A program made the position numbers and the translations under genes. A stretch of 64,000 nt of DNA from contig JAIQFQ010000004.1 of the NCBI GenBank assembly GCA_020073245.1, forward strand, positions 24,181 through 88,180, in the 5' to 3' direction. The DNA comes from Terriglobia bacterium (GTDB lineage Bacteria > Acidobacteriota > Thermoanaerobaculia > Thermoanaerobaculales > Thermoanaerobaculaceae). Positions 43,233 through 50,397 of the stretch are shown here, in pieces; the first letter of the stretch is position 1; every line of letters starts with the position of its first letter. A model generated the notes under the pieces. That model had not been told where the DNA came from, ran no database searches, and saw only the letters and a program-made list of their open reading frames with translations.

Positions 43233-43796
43233 CTACTTGGCGGCGGGAGCCGGAGGCACTGGGTCCGGGACGTGGTTCTTGATTGGGGGTACCGTTCTCA
43301 GGTAGGCGTAGATCGCCTTGAGGTCCTCGTCCGTCATCTTCCCGACCCAGTTCCACGGCATCGGTGGGAGAATCTCCCGCCCGCCGCCGAAGTGCTGGCC
43401 CGTCCTCATCGCCTTGATGAAGTTCTCCTCCGAGAGAGCGCCGAGCCCCGTCTCGGAGTCGGGCGTGAGGTTGCTCGTGTAGCTGATCCCCCACGGCCCG
43501 GCCCACGCCGTCATGGTCAGCGCCGCGACCGCCCCCCACGGCCCCGGCGGCAGTGCAGGAGGCGGCGGGAACTTCATGGCCTCCGGGTGACCGGAAAGCA
43601 TTCGGGCCATGTCGGGTTCGGGGCCCTTCTCGCCGAGCTTCCAGGGTGTGTGGCAGTCGTTACACCCCCCGACCGTGACGAGGTACTTCCCGTGCTCGGC
43701 CGGCGACTGCGCGGCTACGGTCGACCGCGGCTGCTGGCACGCGGCGGCCGCGACGCACATCATTGTGAGGCCTGCGAGTGGTGTCCTCAACCTCAT
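43233..43796 (-). CDS. c-type cytochrome (single CxxCH), exported
   Basis: 187 aa. Signal/lipobox-like MMCVAAAAC, heme motif GGCNDCH. Distal PPMPW region may supply the Met ligand. Confidence 0.8.
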   Translation of the reverse strand: MRLRTPLAGLTMMCVAAAACQQPRSTVAAQSPAEHGKYLVTVGGCNDCHTPWKLGEKGPEPDMARMLSGHPEAMKFPPPPALPPGPWGAVAALTMTAWAGPWGISYTSNLTPDSETGLGALSEENFIKAMRTGQHFGGGREILPPMPWNWVGKMTDEDLKAIYAYLRTVPPIKNHVPDPVPPAPAAK

Positions 43797-43954
43797 CTCT
43801 GCTCTTCCTCCTGATTATGACATTGAAACGCAGTCTACATATCAGGATCGGTTTGTCAAGCGTTTGCAACGGGCCGGCGCATCCTCGTGTTACGATCCCA
43901 CGGCGCCGGACCCGTCGGCGCCACACACCTTTTGCGCGAAGGGGCGGAACGGAC

Positions 43955-45136
43955 ATGGAGCTGCCAATCGGCGCTGGCACGGTCATCTACCTCGACAACG
44001 CCGCCACCACCTTTCCGAAACCAAAAGAGGTGCTGGATCAGATGCTCGAGGTCTACTGCCGGTACGGAGTGAACCCGGGCCGCTCCGGCTACGACCTCTG
44101 CCTGATGGCGGGCGAGCTCGTCGCCGACACCCGTAAGGCGCTGACGCGGCTCTTCGGCGGCTCCGACCCGAACCGCCTGGTGTTCGCCTCCAACGCGACC
44201 GACGCGCTCAACCTCCTCATCCAGGGAGTGCTGAGCGAAGGCGACCACGCGGTCTCGACCACAATCGAGCACAACTCGGTGATCCGTCCCTTGAACCACA
44301 TGGCGCGCGACCGCGGGGTCGAGGTGGACTTCGTGCCGGTTGAGGCGGGTGGCCGGGTGGACCCACGGGCGATCGCGAAGCGGTTGCGGCCGAACACCCG
44401 GCTGGTCGTCGTCAACCACGGCTCGAACGTGATCGGCACGATCCAGCCGGTGGGGGAGATCGGGAGGCTGTGCCGTGCCCGCGGTGTGACGTTCGCGGTC
44501 GACACCGCCCAGACGGCAGGCGTGGTGCCGATCGACATGCAGACCATGTGTATCGATGTCGTCGCGTTCACCGGGCACAAGTCGCTCTTGGCGCCGACGG
44601 GGATCGGCGGCCTGTGTGTCGGGGACGCGGTCGACATCCGGCCCACGCGGTTCGGCGGAACGGGCGTCAACTCCGTGGCCCCGTACCACCTCGAGGAGTA
44701 CCCATACCGCCTCGAGGCCGGCACCGGCAACGTACTCGGCATCGCGGGGCTGCACTTCGGGCAGGCGTACATCGCGAAGCGCGGCCTCGACGCGATCTAC
44801 CGGCACGAGATGGCGCTCTTCTCCCGCCTCCAGGACGGGCTGGCGGCGATCGACGGCGTGACCCTGCACGGGGCGACCGGACTCAAGGACCGACTGCCTG
44901 TCCTCTCGTTTACGGTGGCCGGGCGGGACCCGGCCGACGTCGGCACGCTCCTCGACGTCGAGTACAACATCGCCGCGCGCACGGGCCTGCAGTGCGCCCC
45001 TCTCATCCATCGCCAGATGGGGACCGAAGCCCGGGGCACCGTGCGGCTGTCCGTCGGCCCGTTGAACACCGAGAGTGACATCGAGGCCGCGATCGCGGCG
45101 GTGACCGAGATCGCCACCGAAGCACGGGTCTCGTAG
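43955..45136 (+). CDS. Class-V aminotransferase, cysteine desulfurase / selenocysteine lyase family
   Basis: ATG 43955 within tracked ORF 43778..45136. IYLDNAATTFPKP, FASNATDALN, FTGHKSLLAPTGIGGL (PLP-Lys context). Confidence 0.88.
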   Translation: MELPIGAGTVIYLDNAATTFPKPKEVLDQMLEVYCRYGVNPGRSGYDLCLMAGELVADTRKALTRLFGGSDPNRLVFASNATDALNLLIQGVLSEGDHAVSTTIEHNSVIRPLNHMARDRGVEVDFVPVEAGGRVDPRAIAKRLRPNTRLVVVNHGSNVIGTIQPVGEIGRLCRARGVTFAVDTAQTAGVVPIDMQTMCIDVVAFTGHKSLLAPTGIGGLCVGDAVDIRPTRFGGTGVNSVAPYHLEEYPYRLEAGTGNVLGIAGLHFGQAYIAKRGLDAIYRHEMALFSRLQDGLAAIDGVTLHGATGLKDRLPVLSFTVAGRDPADVGTLLDVEYNIAARTGLQCAPLIHRQMGTEARGTVRLSVGPLNTESDIEAAIAAVTEIATEARVS

Positions 45137-45329: not shown

Positions 45330-46646
45330 TCAAGGTGCGGGCTGGCCCGGGAGGACGAGGGCATCCGCGACGATCTCGGCGAGAGTTCTCACCTCGACGC
45401 CGAGCTTGTAGAAGCGGTTCAACTCCATGAGCTGGTCGATGCAGTTGTGGCAGGGCGACGCAACCACCTTGGCACCCGTCGCACGGATCTGCTCGGCCTT
45501 GATGCGACCTGCCTCGATCCGCTTGGCGGCGTGCTCGGACGCAGCCAACATGCCGCCGCCGCCACCACAGCAGTAGTTGTCCTCGCGGTTGGGAACCATC
45601 TCGACGAAGTCGGCCGCTCCAGCCCGCAAGAGAACCCTCTGCTCCTCGATCACGCCGCCGTTGCGAACGAGATTGCAGGGATCGTGCAGCGTGATTCGGT
45701 CGGCGTTCTTAGTCGGGTCGAGACGGAGAAGCCCGTGGTCGACGTACTCCGCCATTACCTCGACCAAGCTGCTGACCTTGAACGGGAGGGGCCGGCCGAG
45801 CCACTCCGGTGCTTCCCACCTGAGCGCCCGGTACCCATGACCGCACTCGGCCACGACGAGTTCCTCGACTCCCAGCTCTTCGGCCCGCGCGATAAGACGT
45901 TCGGCGATCGCCCGTGCGGCGGCGGCATCGGCCGCGAAGTACCCGTAGTTCGTGATGTCGAAATCGGTTGACGTTAGCGTCCAGTCCTCGCCGGCGACGT
46001 GGAAGATCGTCGCGGCGGCCGAAAGCGACAGGGGGAAGAACTTCACCTCTCGGGGGTTGACCGCGTAGAGGACACGCGCCCCGTAACGATCGATCGGCAT
46101 CGCTGCCGCCGGATCGCCAAGGGTGTCCCGCAGGTCCTGCTCCAGCCAGGCCACCGTCTCCAGGACGTTCTCGCGCGAGATCCCCATGTTGTTGCCGGTC
46201 TCGAGTGCGAGATCGGCGTTCGCGCGGATCCCCTTGGGCACCATGCCGGCGGCGCCCAGCACCGTGCGGGCGAAGCGAATGATCGTTGATGGGTCGAGAC
46301 CGACACTGCAGTTGAGGGCGCAACGGCCGCAGAGCGTGCAGCGCCCGAACGCGGCGGCCGCGAGTCCCTCCAGCGCCTCCAGGTCAAGGTTCTGCGCGCC
46401 CACGAAGCCAGGCGTCAGGCGGCCGAGCAGCGTGTGGTACCGGCGAAAGAGGCGGGCGACGCGCTCCACCTTGTGCGCCGGCATCGACTCGGATTCGGAA
46501 TCCGCCAGGAACACGTGGCAGGTGTCGGCACACAGGCCGCACCTCACGCACGAGTTGAGGAACGCGGTCGTGCGGGCGTCGAGTCGCCCGCGCAGTACCG
46601 CGAGGGCGCGTTCCACGGCTCCCGCGCCGGCCGACGGCTCAGCCAT
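45330..46646 (-). CDS. HdrD/DsrK-family iron-sulfur protein (2x[4Fe-4S] ferredoxin + CCG domains)
   Basis: 438 aa. CVRCGLCADTCHV and CTLCGRCALNCSV ferredoxin motifs. C-terminal CCG-type motifs HDPCNLVRNG...NYCCGGGGG...SPCHNCIDQ. Confidence 0.85.
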   Translation of the reverse strand: MAEPSAGAGAVERALAVLRGRLDARTTAFLNSCVRCGLCADTCHVFLADSESESMPAHKVERVARLFRRYHTLLGRLTPGFVGAQNLDLEALEGLAAAAFGRCTLCGRCALNCSVGLDPSTIIRFARTVLGAAGMVPKGIRANADLALETGNNMGISRENVLETVAWLEQDLRDTLGDPAAAMPIDRYGARVLYAVNPREVKFFPLSLSAAATIFHVAGEDWTLTSTDFDITNYGYFAADAAAARAIAERLIARAEELGVEELVVAECGHGYRALRWEAPEWLGRPLPFKVSSLVEVMAEYVDHGLLRLDPTKNADRITLHDPCNLVRNGGVIEEQRVLLRAGAADFVEMVPNREDNYCCGGGGGMLAASEHAAKRIEAGRIKAEQIRATGAKVVASPCHNCIDQLMELNRFYKLGVEVRTLAEIVADALVLPGQPAP

Positions 46647-47271
46647 GGTCCGACCGGCTACGCACCGCGGTTGGCCGCACGCCCCGACGCCCGAAGGTGG
46701 CCCCGAGAACCCACCGACTGGTGAGGAGGAACAGCATGTGCCTCAGCTTTCCGAGCGGTGCGTACAGGACCAACACGGCGCCCACAATCTGGAAGACCGG
46801 GAGCGTGCTCGGACGCAGTGCAGCTGCGAGCGTCGCCGCGAGCATCAGGTTGACGAGGGCGTTCGCGAAGTAGTCCTCGGGCACACTGACCGCCCGCAAG
46901 CGACGATCGGTGCAGCGCTTCACGAGCAGAGCCAGGCCACACGCGAGGCCACACCCCGCGAGCACGGCGATGACCCCGTTGGCGAGCGACGGCAGCGAAG
47001 GTCCCACCAGGCTGACAGCGAGCCGCACCAATCCGGCGAACACCGCAACGTGATATGCGATGCCTGCGAGGTAACTAGGCAGGTGGCGGGATGCGCTCTC
47101 CTTGGCCCACGGGGCGAATGCGAACGTGAATGCGTACAGGATGCCCGCGGCGGCGCTGCCGCGAGCCGGTGCGATGGGTGCGGGAACGGAGCCCAAACGG
47201 AACCGAAGCGCCGTGAACACTGCGACCGAGGTGACCATCGCAGCGAGGAGGATGAGCGTCGTAGCGTGCAC
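46639..47271 (-). CDS. Polytopic membrane protein, NarI/DsrM/HdrE-like (tentative)
   Basis: 210 aa with 5-6 predicted TM helices. His residues inside helices (SRHLPSYLAGIAYHVAVF) and the C-terminal PLGKLRHMLF resemble the P.SKL.H motif I recall from the nitrate-reductase-gamma-like family. 8-nt overlap with the HdrD/DsrK-like gene. Confidence 0.5.
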   Translation of the reverse strand: MHATTLILLAAMVTSVAVFTALRFRLGSVPAPIAPARGSAAAGILYAFTFAFAPWAKESASRHLPSYLAGIAYHVAVFAGLVRLAVSLVGPSLPSLANGVIAVLAGCGLACGLALLVKRCTDRRLRAVSVPEDYFANALVNLMLAATLAAALRPSTLPVFQIVGAVLVLYAPLGKLRHMLFLLTSRWVLGATFGRRGVRPTAVRSRSDHG

Positions 47272-47381
47272 CTAGCGGTCTCCCGTGGACGGATTCCGGG
47301 CGTGGCGTCGGGAGATCAGGTCCCGACCACGTTTCGCGAGCCGGGAGCGGGTGGTTCCCGGGTGGACGGCCCGGACCGCGT

Positions 47382-47699
47382 TCACACGCAGCCCTCAGGC
47401 TTGGGGAGACCCGCCACCTTGCACGCGCCCTTGGCGGGTCCGGCCGGGAACAGCTTGAAGATCGTGCGCAGGTTGATTCCGGTCCGCTGGCAAAGGAGGC
47501 GGATCATGGGGGCGTTGCCGTGCTCGAGGTAGTACTCGCGGATCATCCGCACGACCGCCCAGTGCTCCGGAGACATCTCCGTGACGCCCTCGGTGGTCGC
47601 GAGCAGCTTTGCAACCTCGTCGTTCCAGAGCTCCGGCTTCTGGAGGAAGCCTTCCTCGTCGACGGCGAACGTGCGGCCTTGGATCGTAATCTCAGACAT
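47382..47699 (-). CDS. dsrC: DsrC/TusE-family sulfur-relay protein with both C-terminal-arm cysteines (DsrC-type)
   Basis: ATG 47699 (GGAGGG SD) within tracked ORF 47382..47756. 105 aa. FAVDEEGFL, MSPEHWAVVRMIREYY. The C-terminus is GACKVAGLPKPEGCV, i.e. a penultimate Cys plus a second Cys ten residues upstream. Confidence 0.88.
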   Translation of the reverse strand: MSEITIQGRTFAVDEEGFLQKPELWNDEVAKLLATTEGVTEMSPEHWAVVRMIREYYLEHGNAPMIRLLCQRTGINLRTIFKLFPAGPAKGACKVAGLPKPEGCV

Positions 47700-47946: not shown

Positions 47947-50397
47947 GTGGGCGGCGTGGCGGACGATCCCAAGATCGCCGAGGCGTTGAGCGAGCTTCAG
48001 CAGTATCTCTCCGACGCCATCTCGCCGCTGGTCGTCGCCGATTCCATCGCCATCCTCCTCGCCGTCCCTCCCGAGGTCGTGGCCGACGAGATCCGCAGTT
48101 GGACCACAAGCCAGCACCGCCGCCTCGGCGCCAGCGTTCCCATCTCCGACTACCTCTACCACGCGATCCGCAAGCTCTACATGATGGGCGAGTTCACCCT
48201 CGTATCAAAGGAAACGATGGCTGCCTACCTGGAGGTGCTCGAGAGCTACCTCGTGGCATTCTGCCCGACCGAGGACAGGGATCTCTTGCGGGAGAACCTC
48301 GACCACCTCGACGACGTACGCTCGGATCTCGCGGCTCCCATTGCGACCCTCCATCGCGCAGAGGAGGAGGAAACCGCTCCTGTCGTGCACCAGCCGACGG
48401 CGACGGCGAAGACGGCCGTTCACGCCAGCCAACAGTTCGCCCAACTCGTCGAGCGGCTGGCGCGCCTCCAGATTCCAGGCGGGCCGGGCGAGACGCCAGC
48501 GGCCGCGCGCGAGGACGTGTTCTCGCAGCTCGTGTCCGTCGCGGCTCGAAACTCCGGCACGAGCGAGGAGTTTGAACAGGCCAAGGAGAGCCTGCGGGCG
48601 TTCGGCATGGGCTCGTCGATGGAGAACGTCTTTCGCTCGCTCGGCCGCCGGCTCCCGGGGTGGGTGGTGCAGGAACAACCGGGGAGCGAGGGCGCAGCGG
48701 CGCCGATGACCGCGACGGCCCGGGCCATGGAACGCATCGTGACGCTCGAGCACGACCCTCGCGAGGCGGCCCGCCGTTTTCAGGAACTCGTATACGCGGC
48801 GATCGAACAGTTCAACGAGGGTTCCCTGGCTCGCGCTGTCACGATGCTGGACCTGGCAGGCCTCCTCCTTGCCGAGAAGAAGGTTGACCCGGCCTACGTG
48901 CAGGGGTTCAAAGAGCAGGCACACGCGAAGCTGGAAGAACAGCGGCTGCGACAATTCGCCGAGGATGCCACCTCGCATGCGCTCTTCCAGCGCATCCTGG
49001 CATTCTTTCCGGCCCTCGAGCCGGCCGGACTCCTCGACGCGGTGAGGGGTGAGGAGAAGCGCGAACGGCGCCACCTCTTGCTCGGGCTCCTTGAGGTTCA
49101 CGGCGCTTCCGCACGGGAGCTGGCCACAGAGCGCCTCGCTGCTTCGATCGCCACCTTCGGCGACAGGGACGCCCACTACCAGAGGAACCTCCTGTACGTG
49201 CTGCGGCGCATCCCGCGTCCGGAAGGGATCGTGCCGGATGCCGAGATTCAGACGGCGATCAGATTGTCGGCGGTGGGAAGGCCGGTGATCCTGCTCAAGG
49301 AAGCGGTCGCCTACCTCGGTCAGGTCAAGGACGAGCGCGCGGAGCGCGCCCTCATCAACCGCGTCGGGGAGTACGAGGCGGCTCTGCTCAAGCCGGGAAG
49401 CACCGGAGTGGAGAACGCCGAGTTGGTGCCGGTTCTTGACCGTGTCGTCTTCGCACTTGCGCGTTTCGACACGCCTGCCGCCGTCCGGGCAGTCGTGAAC
49501 CACGGGCTCAAGCGCCACCCGAACTTTGGCGACACGTCCGCCAGGCTCGCACAGCTTGGCGGCACGGACCTGTCTGGAGACCCCGAGACCGTCAACCGCC
49601 TGGTCCAGGCGATCGAGGCCGAGCTGCCGCACAAGATTTTTGGCTTTCTCCTCAAGAAGGACTGGAGCTTCCTGCTCCACCTCATCGAGGCGGTGGCTTC
49701 GTCCGCGAAGGCACAACCGGTGCGGAATGCCCTCGAGGGAATGGTCCAGCGTTTCCCGGGCGAAGAGTTCAGCCTGGCCGCCTCAAAGGTCCTCGCGGGC
49801 GCCGAACTGCCGCCGGCCCCACCCCAACCCGAGCCGCAACAAACCGCGAGCCTGTCGGGCGATCTCGAGCTGTTCGGGCTGCCGACGCTCCTGCAGAACC
49901 TCTCGCAGTCAGCCGCCTCGGGGGTCCTCACCATCACCGACCCCATCGGGGAAGAGGTTGCAACCGTCGTTCTGGAGAAGGGAAAGTTCCGTGATTGCCA
50001 CGGCGGCCAGCTCACGGGGGAGGTCGCGCTGTTCCAACTGATCGAGCGGCCGACCCCATCTTCATTCAGTTTCGTGAGGCTCAACGTGGCCGCCGAAGGC
50101 GCCGGAAGCGAACCGTTGAAAGATCTTGTGCCTCTCTTCTTCGAGGGGACGCGCCGATACGACGAGTTCCAGCAGGCGTGCATGTTGGTGCCGGACTACG
50201 CCTGCTTGCGCGCGACGGCGACAAAGCCGACGCGCCCGCCCGAGGAGTACGACGGGACGCTGGTCCGCACGGTCTGGCAGCGCGCATGCTCCGGCGCCTC
50301 GGCCATCGAGTGCGAGAAGGACCTCGCGGTGGACTCGTTCCGGGTGCGCAGGGCGCTCGCACACTGGGTCGAGGAGGGATCGCTGGAGCCCCGTTAG
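47947..50397 (+). CDS. Large hypothetical helical-repeat protein with C-terminal DUF4388 domain
   Basis: 816 aa. GTG start with GGAGGA SD and TACAAT further upstream. SLSGDLELFGLPTLLQNLSQSAASGVLTI near residue 640 matches the DUF4388 pattern. No other domain recognised. Confidence 0.5.
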   Translation: MGGVADDPKIAEALSELQQYLSDAISPLVVADSIAILLAVPPEVVADEIRSWTTSQHRRLGASVPISDYLYHAIRKLYMMGEFTLVSKETMAAYLEVLESYLVAFCPTEDRDLLRENLDHLDDVRSDLAAPIATLHRAEEEETAPVVHQPTATAKTAVHASQQFAQLVERLARLQIPGGPGETPAAAREDVFSQLVSVAARNSGTSEEFEQAKESLRAFGMGSSMENVFRSLGRRLPGWVVQEQPGSEGAAAPMTATARAMERIVTLEHDPREAARRFQELVYAAIEQFNEGSLARAVTMLDLAGLLLAEKKVDPAYVQGFKEQAHAKLEEQRLRQFAEDATSHALFQRILAFFPALEPAGLLDAVRGEEKRERRHLLLGLLEVHGASARELATERLAASIATFGDRDAHYQRNLLYVLRRIPRPEGIVPDAEIQTAIRLSAVGRPVILLKEAVAYLGQVKDERAERALINRVGEYEAALLKPGSTGVENAELVPVLDRVVFALARFDTPAAVRAVVNHGLKRHPNFGDTSARLAQLGGTDLSGDPETVNRLVQAIEAELPHKIFGFLLKKDWSFLLHLIEAVASSAKAQPVRNALEGMVQRFPGEEFSLAASKVLAGAELPPAPPQPEPQQTASLSGDLELFGLPTLLQNLSQSAASGVLTITDPIGEEVATVVLEKGKFRDCHGGQLTGEVALFQLIERPTPSSFSFVRLNVAAEGAGSEPLKDLVPLFFEGTRRYDEFQQACMLVPDYACLRATATKPTRPPEEYDGTLVRTVWQRACSGASAIECEKDLAVDSFRVRRALAHWVEEGSLEPR

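Follow-up and report, generated by a model that had tools for sequence, protein, structure and literature searches.

A DsrC operon found apart from DsrAB, with an HmcEF-like membrane complex and a linked cysteine desulfurase, in a peat acidobacterium and in other phyla

Introduction

The sulfur carrier DsrC, in its form with two C-terminal cysteines, is treated as the hallmark partner of the dissimilatory sulfite reductase DsrAB and as a marker of dissimilatory sulfur metabolism. Here we describe a three-gene operon that encodes such a DsrC, followed by a membrane anchor and by an iron-sulfur (Fe-S) subunit with a CCG domain, in a bacterium in whose genome DsrAB was not found. The operon lies on the minus strand, at positions 45330-47699 of a 64,000-nucleotide stretch of contig JAIQFQ010000004.1 (assembly GCA_020073245.1; Terriglobia bacterium, family Thermoanaerobaculaceae), which is called the window below, and converges with a gene for a cysteine desulfurase. 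In our reading, to which we give a probability of roughly 0.55, these genes would form a self-contained module that works independently of DsrAB: the desulfurase would load sulfane sulfur on DsrC, and the membrane complex would reduce this sulfur to sulfide with electrons from quinol.

Copies without DsrAB are scored as false positives by DiSCo (PMC8477390), two-cysteine DsrCs without DsrAB have been listed as rare exceptions (PMC3397948), reported cases of which include Methylococcaceae, Marinobacter and Lawsonia, and dsrC in Anaerolineae lacking dsrAB receives a passing mention in one paper. No description of the module was found in the searchable literature, although an earlier mention in the 2014 Venceslau review stays possible.

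The source genome is a metagenome-assembled genome (MAG) of an uncultured peat acidobacterium, with 4.38 Mb in 89 contigs and a completeness of 94.2%.

A true DsrC of a distinct type

The first gene of the operon (47382..47699, minus strand) is preceded by a GGAGGG Shine-Dalgarno sequence 6 nucleotides 5′ of its ATG and encodes a DsrC-family carrier of 105 residues, which matches PF04358 (5e-36, 123.8 bits; cut-off 24.9) and TIGR03342 (109.7 bits; cut-off 53.5). An earlier note on this DNA had read its end as C-KVAGLPKPEG-C-V, and this is what the protein contains: C93-KVAGLPKPEG-C104-V, where C93 is CysB and C104 is CysA, both invariant in 170 relatives. The same note had taken the protein for a bona fide DsrC, as opposed to TusE, and the comparison agrees with it. 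The alignment with DsrC of D. vulgaris (2v4j_C) runs from end to end, at 116 bits and about 57% identity; other crystallised DsrCs score 85-110 bits, and 7syb, a 'sulfurtransferase' and the only other family chain found, scores 36 bits. In contrast, the TusE equivalog model NF008562 gives 88.1 bits against a cut-off of 191. On the point regarded by the note as decisive, a grouping with TusE, the protein was found to group with true DsrC instead.

Judged by sequence, the DsrC of the module is a distinct clade marked by Glu or Asp in place of Thr at position -3. The C-terminus reads PKP[E/D]GCV in every module-linked DsrC of every phylum, and PKPTGCV in every DsrC from a dsr cluster of the family as well as in the crystallised DsrCs. 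This replacement is systematic in module copies and absent from all dsr-linked copies, which allows an E/D-type and a T-type to be told apart; further diagnostic positions are 53 (I versus L) and 71 (Q versus K). The E/D-type accounts for 102 of the 120 best metagenomic relatives of the window protein. Compared with the DiSCo motif AGLPKPTGC, the window DsrC reads AGLPKPEGC, a single mismatch that DiSCo tolerates (PMC8477390). Annotators are given, by the PKP[E/D]GCV signature, an immediate means to separate the two types.

In a tree built with the trait columns removed, the main E/D clade is split from the T clade with support of 89/92 in the Shimodaira-Hasegawa-like approximate likelihood ratio test (SH-aLRT). 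Deeper branches are formed by Bacteroidales and by a second E/D group with acidobacterial and Eubacteriales members, and the E/D label needs three changes on the tree. The starred branches leave room for a single origin of all E/D-type DsrCs, without demonstrating one.

Each genome has one true DsrC, which is of the T-type inside dsr clusters and of the E/D-type beside the anchor gene, in every phylum. Within the genus of the window the two types are only 57-58% identical; what distinguishes its species is therefore which of two old paralogues they carry. Several genomes of the family also have, besides the true DsrC, tandem pairs of weaker DsrC-family genes of about 69 bits (G046:C106:34315-34944, G044:C417:4002-4628, G062:C38:38412-39038 and G049:C119:41947-42576, where G, C and, below, L stand before our numbers for genomes, contigs and loci). 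These matches end at profile position 100-101, and the proteins probably lack the C-terminal cysteine arm.

Absence of DsrAB and distribution of the module

That no dsrAB genes lie near the operon, as the earlier note had stated, is true of the window and also of the whole genome, where neither DsrA (TIGR02064) nor DsrB was found. The genome has no match of any kind to the siroheme sulfite reductase domain NIR_SIR (PF01077), and hence no siroheme-type assimilatory sulfite or nitrite reductase; AprA and canonical DsrK were likewise not found in it. It has one DsrC, and its only DsrK-family gene is the Fe-S subunit of the module. Other sulfur carriers are also missing: no member of the DsrE/TusBCD family (PF02635) and no TusA (PF01206) was found in this genome, and PF02635 is missing in 16 of the 29 module carriers. 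Organisms with the module may depend on reduced or organic sulfur.

The distribution of the module was followed by using the membrane anchor as a marker and one genome per species. The anchor gene was found in 28 further genomes, from Thermoanaerobaculaceae and other Acidobacteriota, Gemmatimonadales, Eisenbacteria, Eubacteriales and Bacteroidales, so that the module is present in the phyla Acidobacteriota, Gemmatimonadota, Eisenbacteria, Bacillota and Bacteroidota. All 28 keep the order of DsrC followed by the anchor, and nearly all keep the Fe-S subunit. Because the same order is found in 28 other species genomes, it is not due to chance. Loci L006, L007 and L023 come from the SPRUCE and fen sites.

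The gene for DsrA is absent in 27 of these 28 carriers, including near-complete assemblies with contigs of 0.6-1.6 Mb, and 26 of the 28 have no match to the dsrA model even at E <= 0.001. The model does detect assimilatory enzymes in control genomes. In general, AprA, canonical DsrMK(JOP) and the Tus relay are lacking in module carriers as well. The sole carrier with dsrA is G005 (the same genome as G057), in which dsrAB and aprA lie on one 14-kb contig.

Two side observations concern these dsr genes. Since G057 has its dsrAB and aprA on a single 14-kb contig and is the only genome that also has the module, mis-binning is possible. In addition, three dsrA matches contain one in-frame TGA (G057:C4:1754-2911, G032:C23:284157-285320 and G051:C17:2070-3233), which could be a selenocysteine codon, a frame artefact or the sign of a pseudogene.

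Alternation with dsr genes inside the family

The relation between the module and the Dsr pathway was surveyed in 42 species genomes of the family, with the module defined by an orthologous anchor (E < 1e-50). The module is present in 16 genomes and dsrA in 18, and the overlap is one genome, G005/G057. Nine weaker anchor matches, all in dsrA-positive genomes, correspond to a paralogous HmcE-like/HmcF-like pair. In genomes with dsrAB, DsrC is part of the dsr cluster and adjoins canonical DsrK; otherwise, it lies immediately upstream of the anchor. One genus of the family, g12, has neither DsrC nor dsrAB, and both the module and the desulfurase family TIGR01977 are missing from it too.

This alternation reaches into the genus of the window, whose module genomes without dsrA are 94-96% complete in 10-30 contigs. 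Two dsrAB-positive species of the same genus (G064 and G059) have the cytochrome c gene, the desulfurase gene (81-83% identical), the DUF4388 gene and genes for a superoxide dismutase and a pyridine-nucleotide oxidoreductase; only the three module genes are missing, and the gap between the desulfurase and DUF4388 genes measures only 245 bp. Since the neighbourhood is identical minus three genes, the operon is a clean presence/absence polymorphism beside a resident desulfurase.

These data bear on the simplest alternative, namely, a canonical Dsr pathway whose dsrAB genes are merely unassembled or unbinned. A MAG in 89 contigs that is 94.2% complete leaves some room for it, and one carrier does have dsrAB and aprA. 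Nevertheless, dsrA is absent in all the other carriers examined, some of them near-complete, canonical DsrK and AprA are missing from the window's genome as well, the DsrC type of the module differs from the dsr-linked type, and the dsrAB-positive relatives have an empty site at the locus. We consider this alternative barely credible, and one of the two explanations offered by the earlier note, that dsrAB lie elsewhere in the genome, is rejected. The other, a DsrAB-independent module fed by the neighbouring desulfurase, is backed by comparative genomics.

The Fe-S/CCG catalytic subunit

The last gene of the operon (45330..46646, minus strand) overlaps the membrane gene by 8 nucleotides and encodes a cytoplasmic catalytic subunit of the HmcF/TmcB/DsrK type, with 438 residues and Pfam matches to Fer4_8 and CCG. 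Two [4Fe-4S] motifs (C33xxCxxCxxxC43 and C103xxCxxCxxxC113) were found, as previously noted, and there is a single CCG domain (PF02754, residues 318-405) with the cysteines C324, C359, C360, C399 and C402, which ends in C399-H-N-C402. Between them lies the motif A-E-C268-G-H270, which aligns with GECGH of canonical DsrK. DsrK, HmcF and TmcB are reported to be marked by one CCG domain in combination with a (T/G)ECGH cysteine (PMC10861901).

Among these three enzymes, the NCBIfam models place the protein closest to HmcF (NF045711, 296 bits), followed by TmcB (NF045724, 266 bits) and DsrK (NF045796, 248 bits). All three scores are below the equivalog cut-offs, which are 750, 735 and 400 bits, respectively, while the canonical DsrKs of dsrAB-positive relatives reach about 725 bits on the DsrK model. 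Two structural differences also separate the subunit from these DsrKs. First, its CCG domain ends in C-H-N-C, as in all copies of the module, versus C-A-I-D in the canonical DsrKs of relatives. Second, in an alignment with the latter, an insert of 18 residues that follows ECGH in DsrK is absent. According to a preprint on the structure of DsrMKJOP, C329, H331 and D500 (A. fulgidus numbering) are strictly conserved in DsrK, and D500 replaces the supernumerary cysteine of HdrB (bioRxiv 10.64898/2026.08.25.746951). Since ECGH is kept but the domain ends in C-x-x-C and the insert is missing, the subunit would act like DsrK, yet it is not DsrK.

From its scores and motifs, we describe the subunit as an HmcF/TmcB-like relative. 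The DsrM/DsrK architecture proposed in the earlier note can therefore be kept only in part: the subunit types and ECGH fit it, but both subunits are nearer to HmcE/HmcF and TmcC/TmcB, and the C-x-x-D of DsrK is replaced by C-x-x-C. Periplasmic multihaem cytochrome genes (HmcA/TmcA) were found neither in the operon nor at the 28 related loci, where the sole cytochrome is a monohaem c, in this family only. A search of PDB sequences with the Fe-S subunit returned only 9ojn_A, a 1042-residue 'iron-sulfur-binding reductase' that is matched over its own CCG domain (residues 522-712).

The paralogous pair mentioned above was seen in dsrAB-positive relatives, with an HmcE-like protein of 228 residues and an HmcF-like protein (L035:3725-6191, in G054:C102, and also L036, L037, L039 and L041). 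The HmcF-like paralogue is 44-46% identical to the Fe-S subunit of the module and carries a C-terminal response-regulator receiver domain, an unusual fusion for an Fe-S/CCG enzyme. At L035, the only one of these loci with other neighbours annotated, the pair is divergent from dsrAB, and genes for a histidine kinase, an Rrf2 regulator and a macro-domain protein lie nearby.

The membrane anchor

The middle gene (46639..47271, minus strand) encodes a polytopic protein of 210 residues, as the earlier note had it, with about five transmembrane helices; it was assigned from weak NCBIfam matches and the fold of its model as a distant NarI/HmcE/TmcC-type putative cytochrome b. The kinship of this protein with NarI and DsrM, which had been proposed in the earlier note, is supported, though as a distant one, and the refuting condition named by the note, a failure to match models of that family, does not overturn it. 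It has no Pfam match at E <= 0.01, PF02665 included, and its NCBIfam matches (TmcC, 4e-8 and 32.9 bits; HmcE, 2e-7 and 31.1 bits; DsrM, 5e-3 and 16 bits) are far below the cut-offs of 240-300 bits. A profile of the anchor family gave nothing meaningful against PDB sequences, and the alignment with E. coli NarI by hhalign covers only 27 columns (anchor 111-137 with NarI 104-130). On the other hand, the eight best Foldseek matches of its AlphaFold model in the PDB are all NarI, at E values of 0.03-0.07 and a template modelling (TM) score of 0.53; the model has a mean predicted local distance difference test (pLDDT) score of 72, with two low-confidence stretches. In neighbouring Atlas clusters, PF02665 is found in 20-25% of members.

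At 50% identity, the anchor family falls into 445 clusters. Among 118 representatives, three histidines are conserved, H63 (92%), H74 (99%) and H178 (97%), along with K57, E58, R119, D133, P172 and K175. The haem-ligating histidines of E. coli NarI are H56, H66, H187 and H205. The spacing of H63 and H74 is 11, versus 10 for H56 and H66 of NarI, and P-L-G-K-L-R-H178 resembles P-F-S-R-L-I-H205. From this pattern we infer that the anchor holds at least one bis-histidine haem, placed toward the cytoplasm; that there is a second one is uncertain.

Further support for the relationship to DsrM-type proteins comes from fusion. P0353 (L083:6001-8013) is a natural 670-residue fusion of the anchor with the Fe-S/CCG subunit, and a cluster of fused proteins is also found in Bacteroidota. 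These fusions indicate that the two proteins form a complex and that the C-terminus of the anchor is cytoplasmic. P0353 itself has PCGH instead of ECGH, its CCG domain ends in C-F-N-C, and its genomic context is uninformative.

Linkage to a cysteine desulfurase

The desulfurase gene (43955..45136, plus strand) encodes a group-II-like, pyridoxal phosphate (PLP)-dependent enzyme of 393 residues, which scores 422.9 bits on TIGR01977 (EF2568 type), above the cut-off of 377, and 258 bits on the SufS subfamily. The PLP-binding K209, the catalytic C347 (in RTGLQCAP) and H208 are invariant in 12 orthologues.

The gene adjoins the module in most lineages, convergently in Acidobacteriota, Gemmatimonadota and Eubacteriales (Bacillota), and takes other positions elsewhere. 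At two loci (L025 and L030) it follows the Fe-S gene directly and in the same direction. In the Bacteroidales genome G023 the module is split, with DsrC and the anchor at one place and the Fe-S subunit, followed by a TIGR01977 gene, at another. In all, the linkage recurs in at least four phyla, including operonic arrangements and this split pair. Furthermore, the five carriers that lack an adjacent desulfurase all encode a TIGR01977 enzyme, and none of 14 control genomes has one above the cut-off.

How central the desulfurase is to the system is the point at which a second explanation has to be weighed. The module might be a general cytoplasmic reductase of sulfane sulfur (persulfide, polysulfide or S0), in which E/D-type DsrC would take zero-valent sulfur from low-molecular-weight persulfides or imported polysulfide for reduction by the membrane complex, the desulfurase being a minor source or linked otherwise. 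It would agree with the fact that the inseparable core is DsrC with the anchor, usually with the Fe-S subunit, and that the desulfurase is missing at five loci and persists without the module in dsrAB-positive relatives. In one Gemmatimonadales lineage, the module also stands beside a group-3b (sulfhydrogenase-type) nickel-iron (NiFe) hydrogenase with a regulator that binds cyclic nucleoside monophosphates (cNMP), and A. vinosum DsrC is persulfurated in vitro by sulfide alone as well (PMC3397948). Nevertheless, the desulfurase is linked to the module in at least four phyla, with operonic forms and the split Fe-S/desulfurase pair; no gene for rhodanese, TusA or polysulfide reductase is conserved beside the module, TusA is missing from the window's genome, and the hydrogenase neighbourhood belongs to a single lineage, with copies 89-100% identical. 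This explanation is, in our estimate, rather unlikely.

A third explanation keeps the desulfurase and changes the destination of the sulfur. Group-II desulfurases normally pair with dedicated acceptor proteins, as in SufS-SufE and CsdA-CsdE, and the DsrC/TusE family includes a proven biosynthetic carrier. The desulfurase could thus load E/D-type DsrC as part of a TusE/CsdE-like relay toward an anabolic acceptor (tRNA thiolation, Fe-S clusters, molybdopterin or thiamine), with the membrane complex only keeping the carrier reduced. The window's genome encodes at least 11 class-V aminotransferase paralogues, and specialised desulfurase/acceptor pairs are therefore plausible. Against the relay, a dedicated quinone-linked haem/Fe-S membrane reductase is, to our knowledge, not a feature of known biosynthetic relays; the genome lacks both TusA and TusBCD, no gene for an acceptor enzyme is conserved nearby, and the module alternates with the respiratory Dsr system inside one genus. 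In addition, the protein is DsrC-like and keeps both redox cysteines, which TusE-type proteins do not (PMC3397948). We regard a biosynthetic relay as unlikely.

Finally, the second-best NCBIfam match of the desulfurase is the selenocysteine lyase SclA (NF040779), and the module might then traffic in selenium: the TIGR01977 enzyme would be an SclA-like lyase, DsrC would carry Se0 and the membrane complex would reduce it to selenide for SelD. The gene selD is found in 23 of the 29 module genomes, and that of the window's own genome contains an in-frame TGA. However, the SclA score of 319.7 bits is far under the cut-off of 525, and selD is present in 40 of the 42 family genomes whether or not they have the module; because it is near-universal, there is no specific association between the two. 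Moreover, selD is missing both from the Eubacteriales genome G022, which has the module complete with its fourth gene, and from four Bacteroidales carriers. A role in selenium trafficking is quite improbable. The in-frame TGA is itself a wider feature, as SelD genes of this genome (G000:C88:94351-95274) and of nearly all family genomes have one, which suggests a selenocysteine-containing SelD.

Proposed mechanism

In the mechanism that we favour, the desulfurase would convert L-cysteine to alanine, leaving a persulfide on Cys347, and the sulfane sulfur would pass to CysA (C104) of DsrC. There, CysB (C93) may trap or stabilise the sulfur, as a trisulfide or by resolution to a disulfide. DsrC's C-terminal arm would then enter the Fe-S subunit, where the sulfur or disulfide would be reduced at a non-cubane [4Fe-4S] cluster via Cys268, with electrons that flow from the quinol pool to the haem or haems of the membrane subunit and on to the Fe-S subunit. 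The net reaction would be that of cysteine and quinol giving alanine, H2S and quinone. Such a system could be a sink that serves respiration or redox balance, with the desulfurase taking the place of DsrAB in supplying DsrC with sulfur.

We infer the sulfur-transfer steps, the form of the sulfur on DsrC, the haem content and the quinol coupling from sequence comparisons, and two published observations are pertinent to them. In vitro, A. vinosum DsrC receives a persulfide on its penultimate cysteine from IscS and cysteine (PMC3397948), and DsrK acts on CysA-bound sulfane sulfur, which the ECGH cysteine hands on to a single non-cubane cluster (bioRxiv 10.64898/2026.08.25.746951).

Several points weigh against this interpretation. 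Regarding the redox part, the anchor has three of the four haem-ligating histidines of NarI, with no histidine at the position equivalent to H187; its haem content and coupling to quinol are putative, and so are the direction of electron flow and the species reduced (persulfide, trisulfide or disulfide). Regarding the sulfur donor, four Bacteroidales loci and one Gemmatimonadales locus have no adjacent desulfurase, and within the family adjacency alone could result from the place at which the three genes came in or dropped out. An orthologue of the desulfurase, 81-83% identical, keeps this locus in species that have dsrAB but not the module; therefore, its role does not require E/D-type DsrC, and it may act with either type of DsrC or do something else. 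In general, all the carriers found are uncultured MAGs, with no cultured carrier among them, and they are related genomes, so that the counts are not phylogenetically independent.

A more far-reaching possibility, which we put forward tentatively and think doubtful as it stands, is that the module represents an unrecognised anaerobic respiration or obligatory redox sink. Cysteine sulfur on E/D-type DsrC, released by a dedicated desulfurase, would here be the terminal electron acceptor for a quinol-oxidising HmcEF-like complex; the process would occur widely among bacteria of peat, soil, sediment and gut, in at least five phyla, and it and the Dsr pathway would replace each other from one species of a genus to another. 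If true, it would be the organosulfur counterpart of sulfite respiration.

The favoured mechanism, if true, would have consequences of its own. Organic sulfur would be turned into sulfide in wetlands and guts by a new biological route, enzymes of the DsrMK type would have a second physiological source of substrate, and there would be a reason why, of sister species, some have the Dsr pathway and others the module. Apart from this, there is a large environmental clade of two-cysteine DsrCs with a signature of its own, a membrane reductase of its own and a linked cysteine desulfurase.

Neighbouring genes and other observations

Within the operon, the genes for DsrC and the anchor are separated by a GC-rich spacer of 110 nucleotides (47272..47381, minus strand) with two short possible hairpins, CCGGG...CCCGG and GTCGGGA...TCCCGAC. 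Its predicted fold of -49 kcal/mol (z = -1.18 against shuffles) is no better than that of shuffled sequence, and a scan of the spacer found no promoter- or terminator-like sites.

The flanking genes are those named in the earlier note (DUF4388, class-V desulfurase and cytochrome c), with two adjustments: the start of the desulfurase gene is at 43955 and not at 43952, and the DUF4388 match is marginal. The latter belongs to a divergent gene for a protein of 816 residues (47947..50397, plus strand), which scores 24.8 bits on PF14332 against a cut-off of 25 and forms the other edge of the three-gene insertion or deletion. Beyond the desulfurase lies a gene for a c-type cytochrome of 187 residues (43233..43796, minus strand; PF00034, 1e-5). 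The cytochrome gene adjoins the desulfurase at L007, L014, L015 and L021, and also at the module-free loci L079 and L082; it is syntenic within the family, and is no part of the module in other phyla.

The hydrogenase neighbourhood was observed at L002:3044-7434 and at L005, L020, L022 and L023, all from one Gemmatimonadales lineage, where the module is divergent from a four-gene group-3b-like NiFe hydrogenase operon. A gene for the cNMP-binding regulator accompanies the hydrogenase operon at these loci, and DUF1761 genes are found beyond the desulfurase. The window's own genome encodes two NiFe hydrogenases (G000:C80:35393-36949 and C63:230110-232475). One is a full-length, strong match of 769 bits; the other has diverged and shares only a distant relationship with the group-3b enzyme of Gemmatimonadales.

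Comparison with known systems

One close parallel is DsrC with DsrMK(JOP) of sulfate/sulfite reducers and sulfur oxidisers, in which similar parts are present: a two-cysteine DsrC, an HdrD-like cytoplasmic subunit that combines two [4Fe-4S] motifs with a single CCG domain and the Cys/His pair of ECGH, and a small membrane partner, for which the NarI fold is putative in the module. The minimal layout of two subunits resembles DsrMK. However, the module is found without DsrAB, so there is no enzyme that makes the DsrC trisulfide. Its catalytic subunit also departs from DsrK in its score (248 bits, for a cut-off of 400), its C-x-x-C end and its lack of the 18-residue insert, and its anchor, at 210 residues, is short for the 320-position DsrM model, which it matches at 5e-3.

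By sequence, both subunits have their best NCBIfam matches in HmcEF and TmcBC, transmembrane complexes of Desulfovibrio, with which they share a single CCG domain with (T/G/A)ECGH and an anchor of similar size (the HmcE and TmcC models have 218-226 positions). The scores are nevertheless far below the cut-offs (750, 735, 275 and 240), and partners of the HmcA, TmcA or HmcBCD type are missing. Unlike these complexes, the pair of the module shares its operon with DsrC and has a desulfurase gene linked to it. Nearer to it than they are is the paralogous pair with the receiver fusion that adjoins dsrAB in relatives.

On the side of sulfur supply, the E. coli relay of IscS, TusA, TusBCD and TusE likewise combines a cysteine desulfurase with a carrier of the DsrC/TusE family, which in the module would be persulfurated on its penultimate cysteine. 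The module differs from this relay in having no TusA or TusBCD, in its DsrC-like carrier with two cysteines and in the membrane redox complex attached to it; no linkage to MnmA was seen. SufS-SufE/SufU and CsdA-CsdE offer another parallel, with a SufS/CsdA-like desulfurase whose cysteine lies in R-x-G-x-x-C-A and a small, dedicated, cysteine-bearing partner encoded nearby. In contrast to those systems, the presumed acceptor has the DsrC fold and not that of SufE or CsdE, and what would follow downstream is a quinone-linked reductase, not an Fe-S scaffold or TcdA.

Lastly, HdrDE of Methanosarcina also joins a cytochrome-b anchor to an HdrD-type subunit, which reduces a disulfide with electrons from a quinone-like membrane carrier, and the C-x-x-C end of the CCG domain is as in Hdr. 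Unlike HdrDE, the module has one CCG domain and not two, its substrate would be the protein DsrC and not the disulfide of coenzymes M and B (CoM-S-S-CoB), and it is bacterial and presumably linked to menaquinone. We take the module for a system of the DsrC/DsrMK type with no sulfite reductase and, probably, a different sulfur donor; its parts and its recurrence in several phyla point to an undescribed way of reducing cysteine-derived sulfur.

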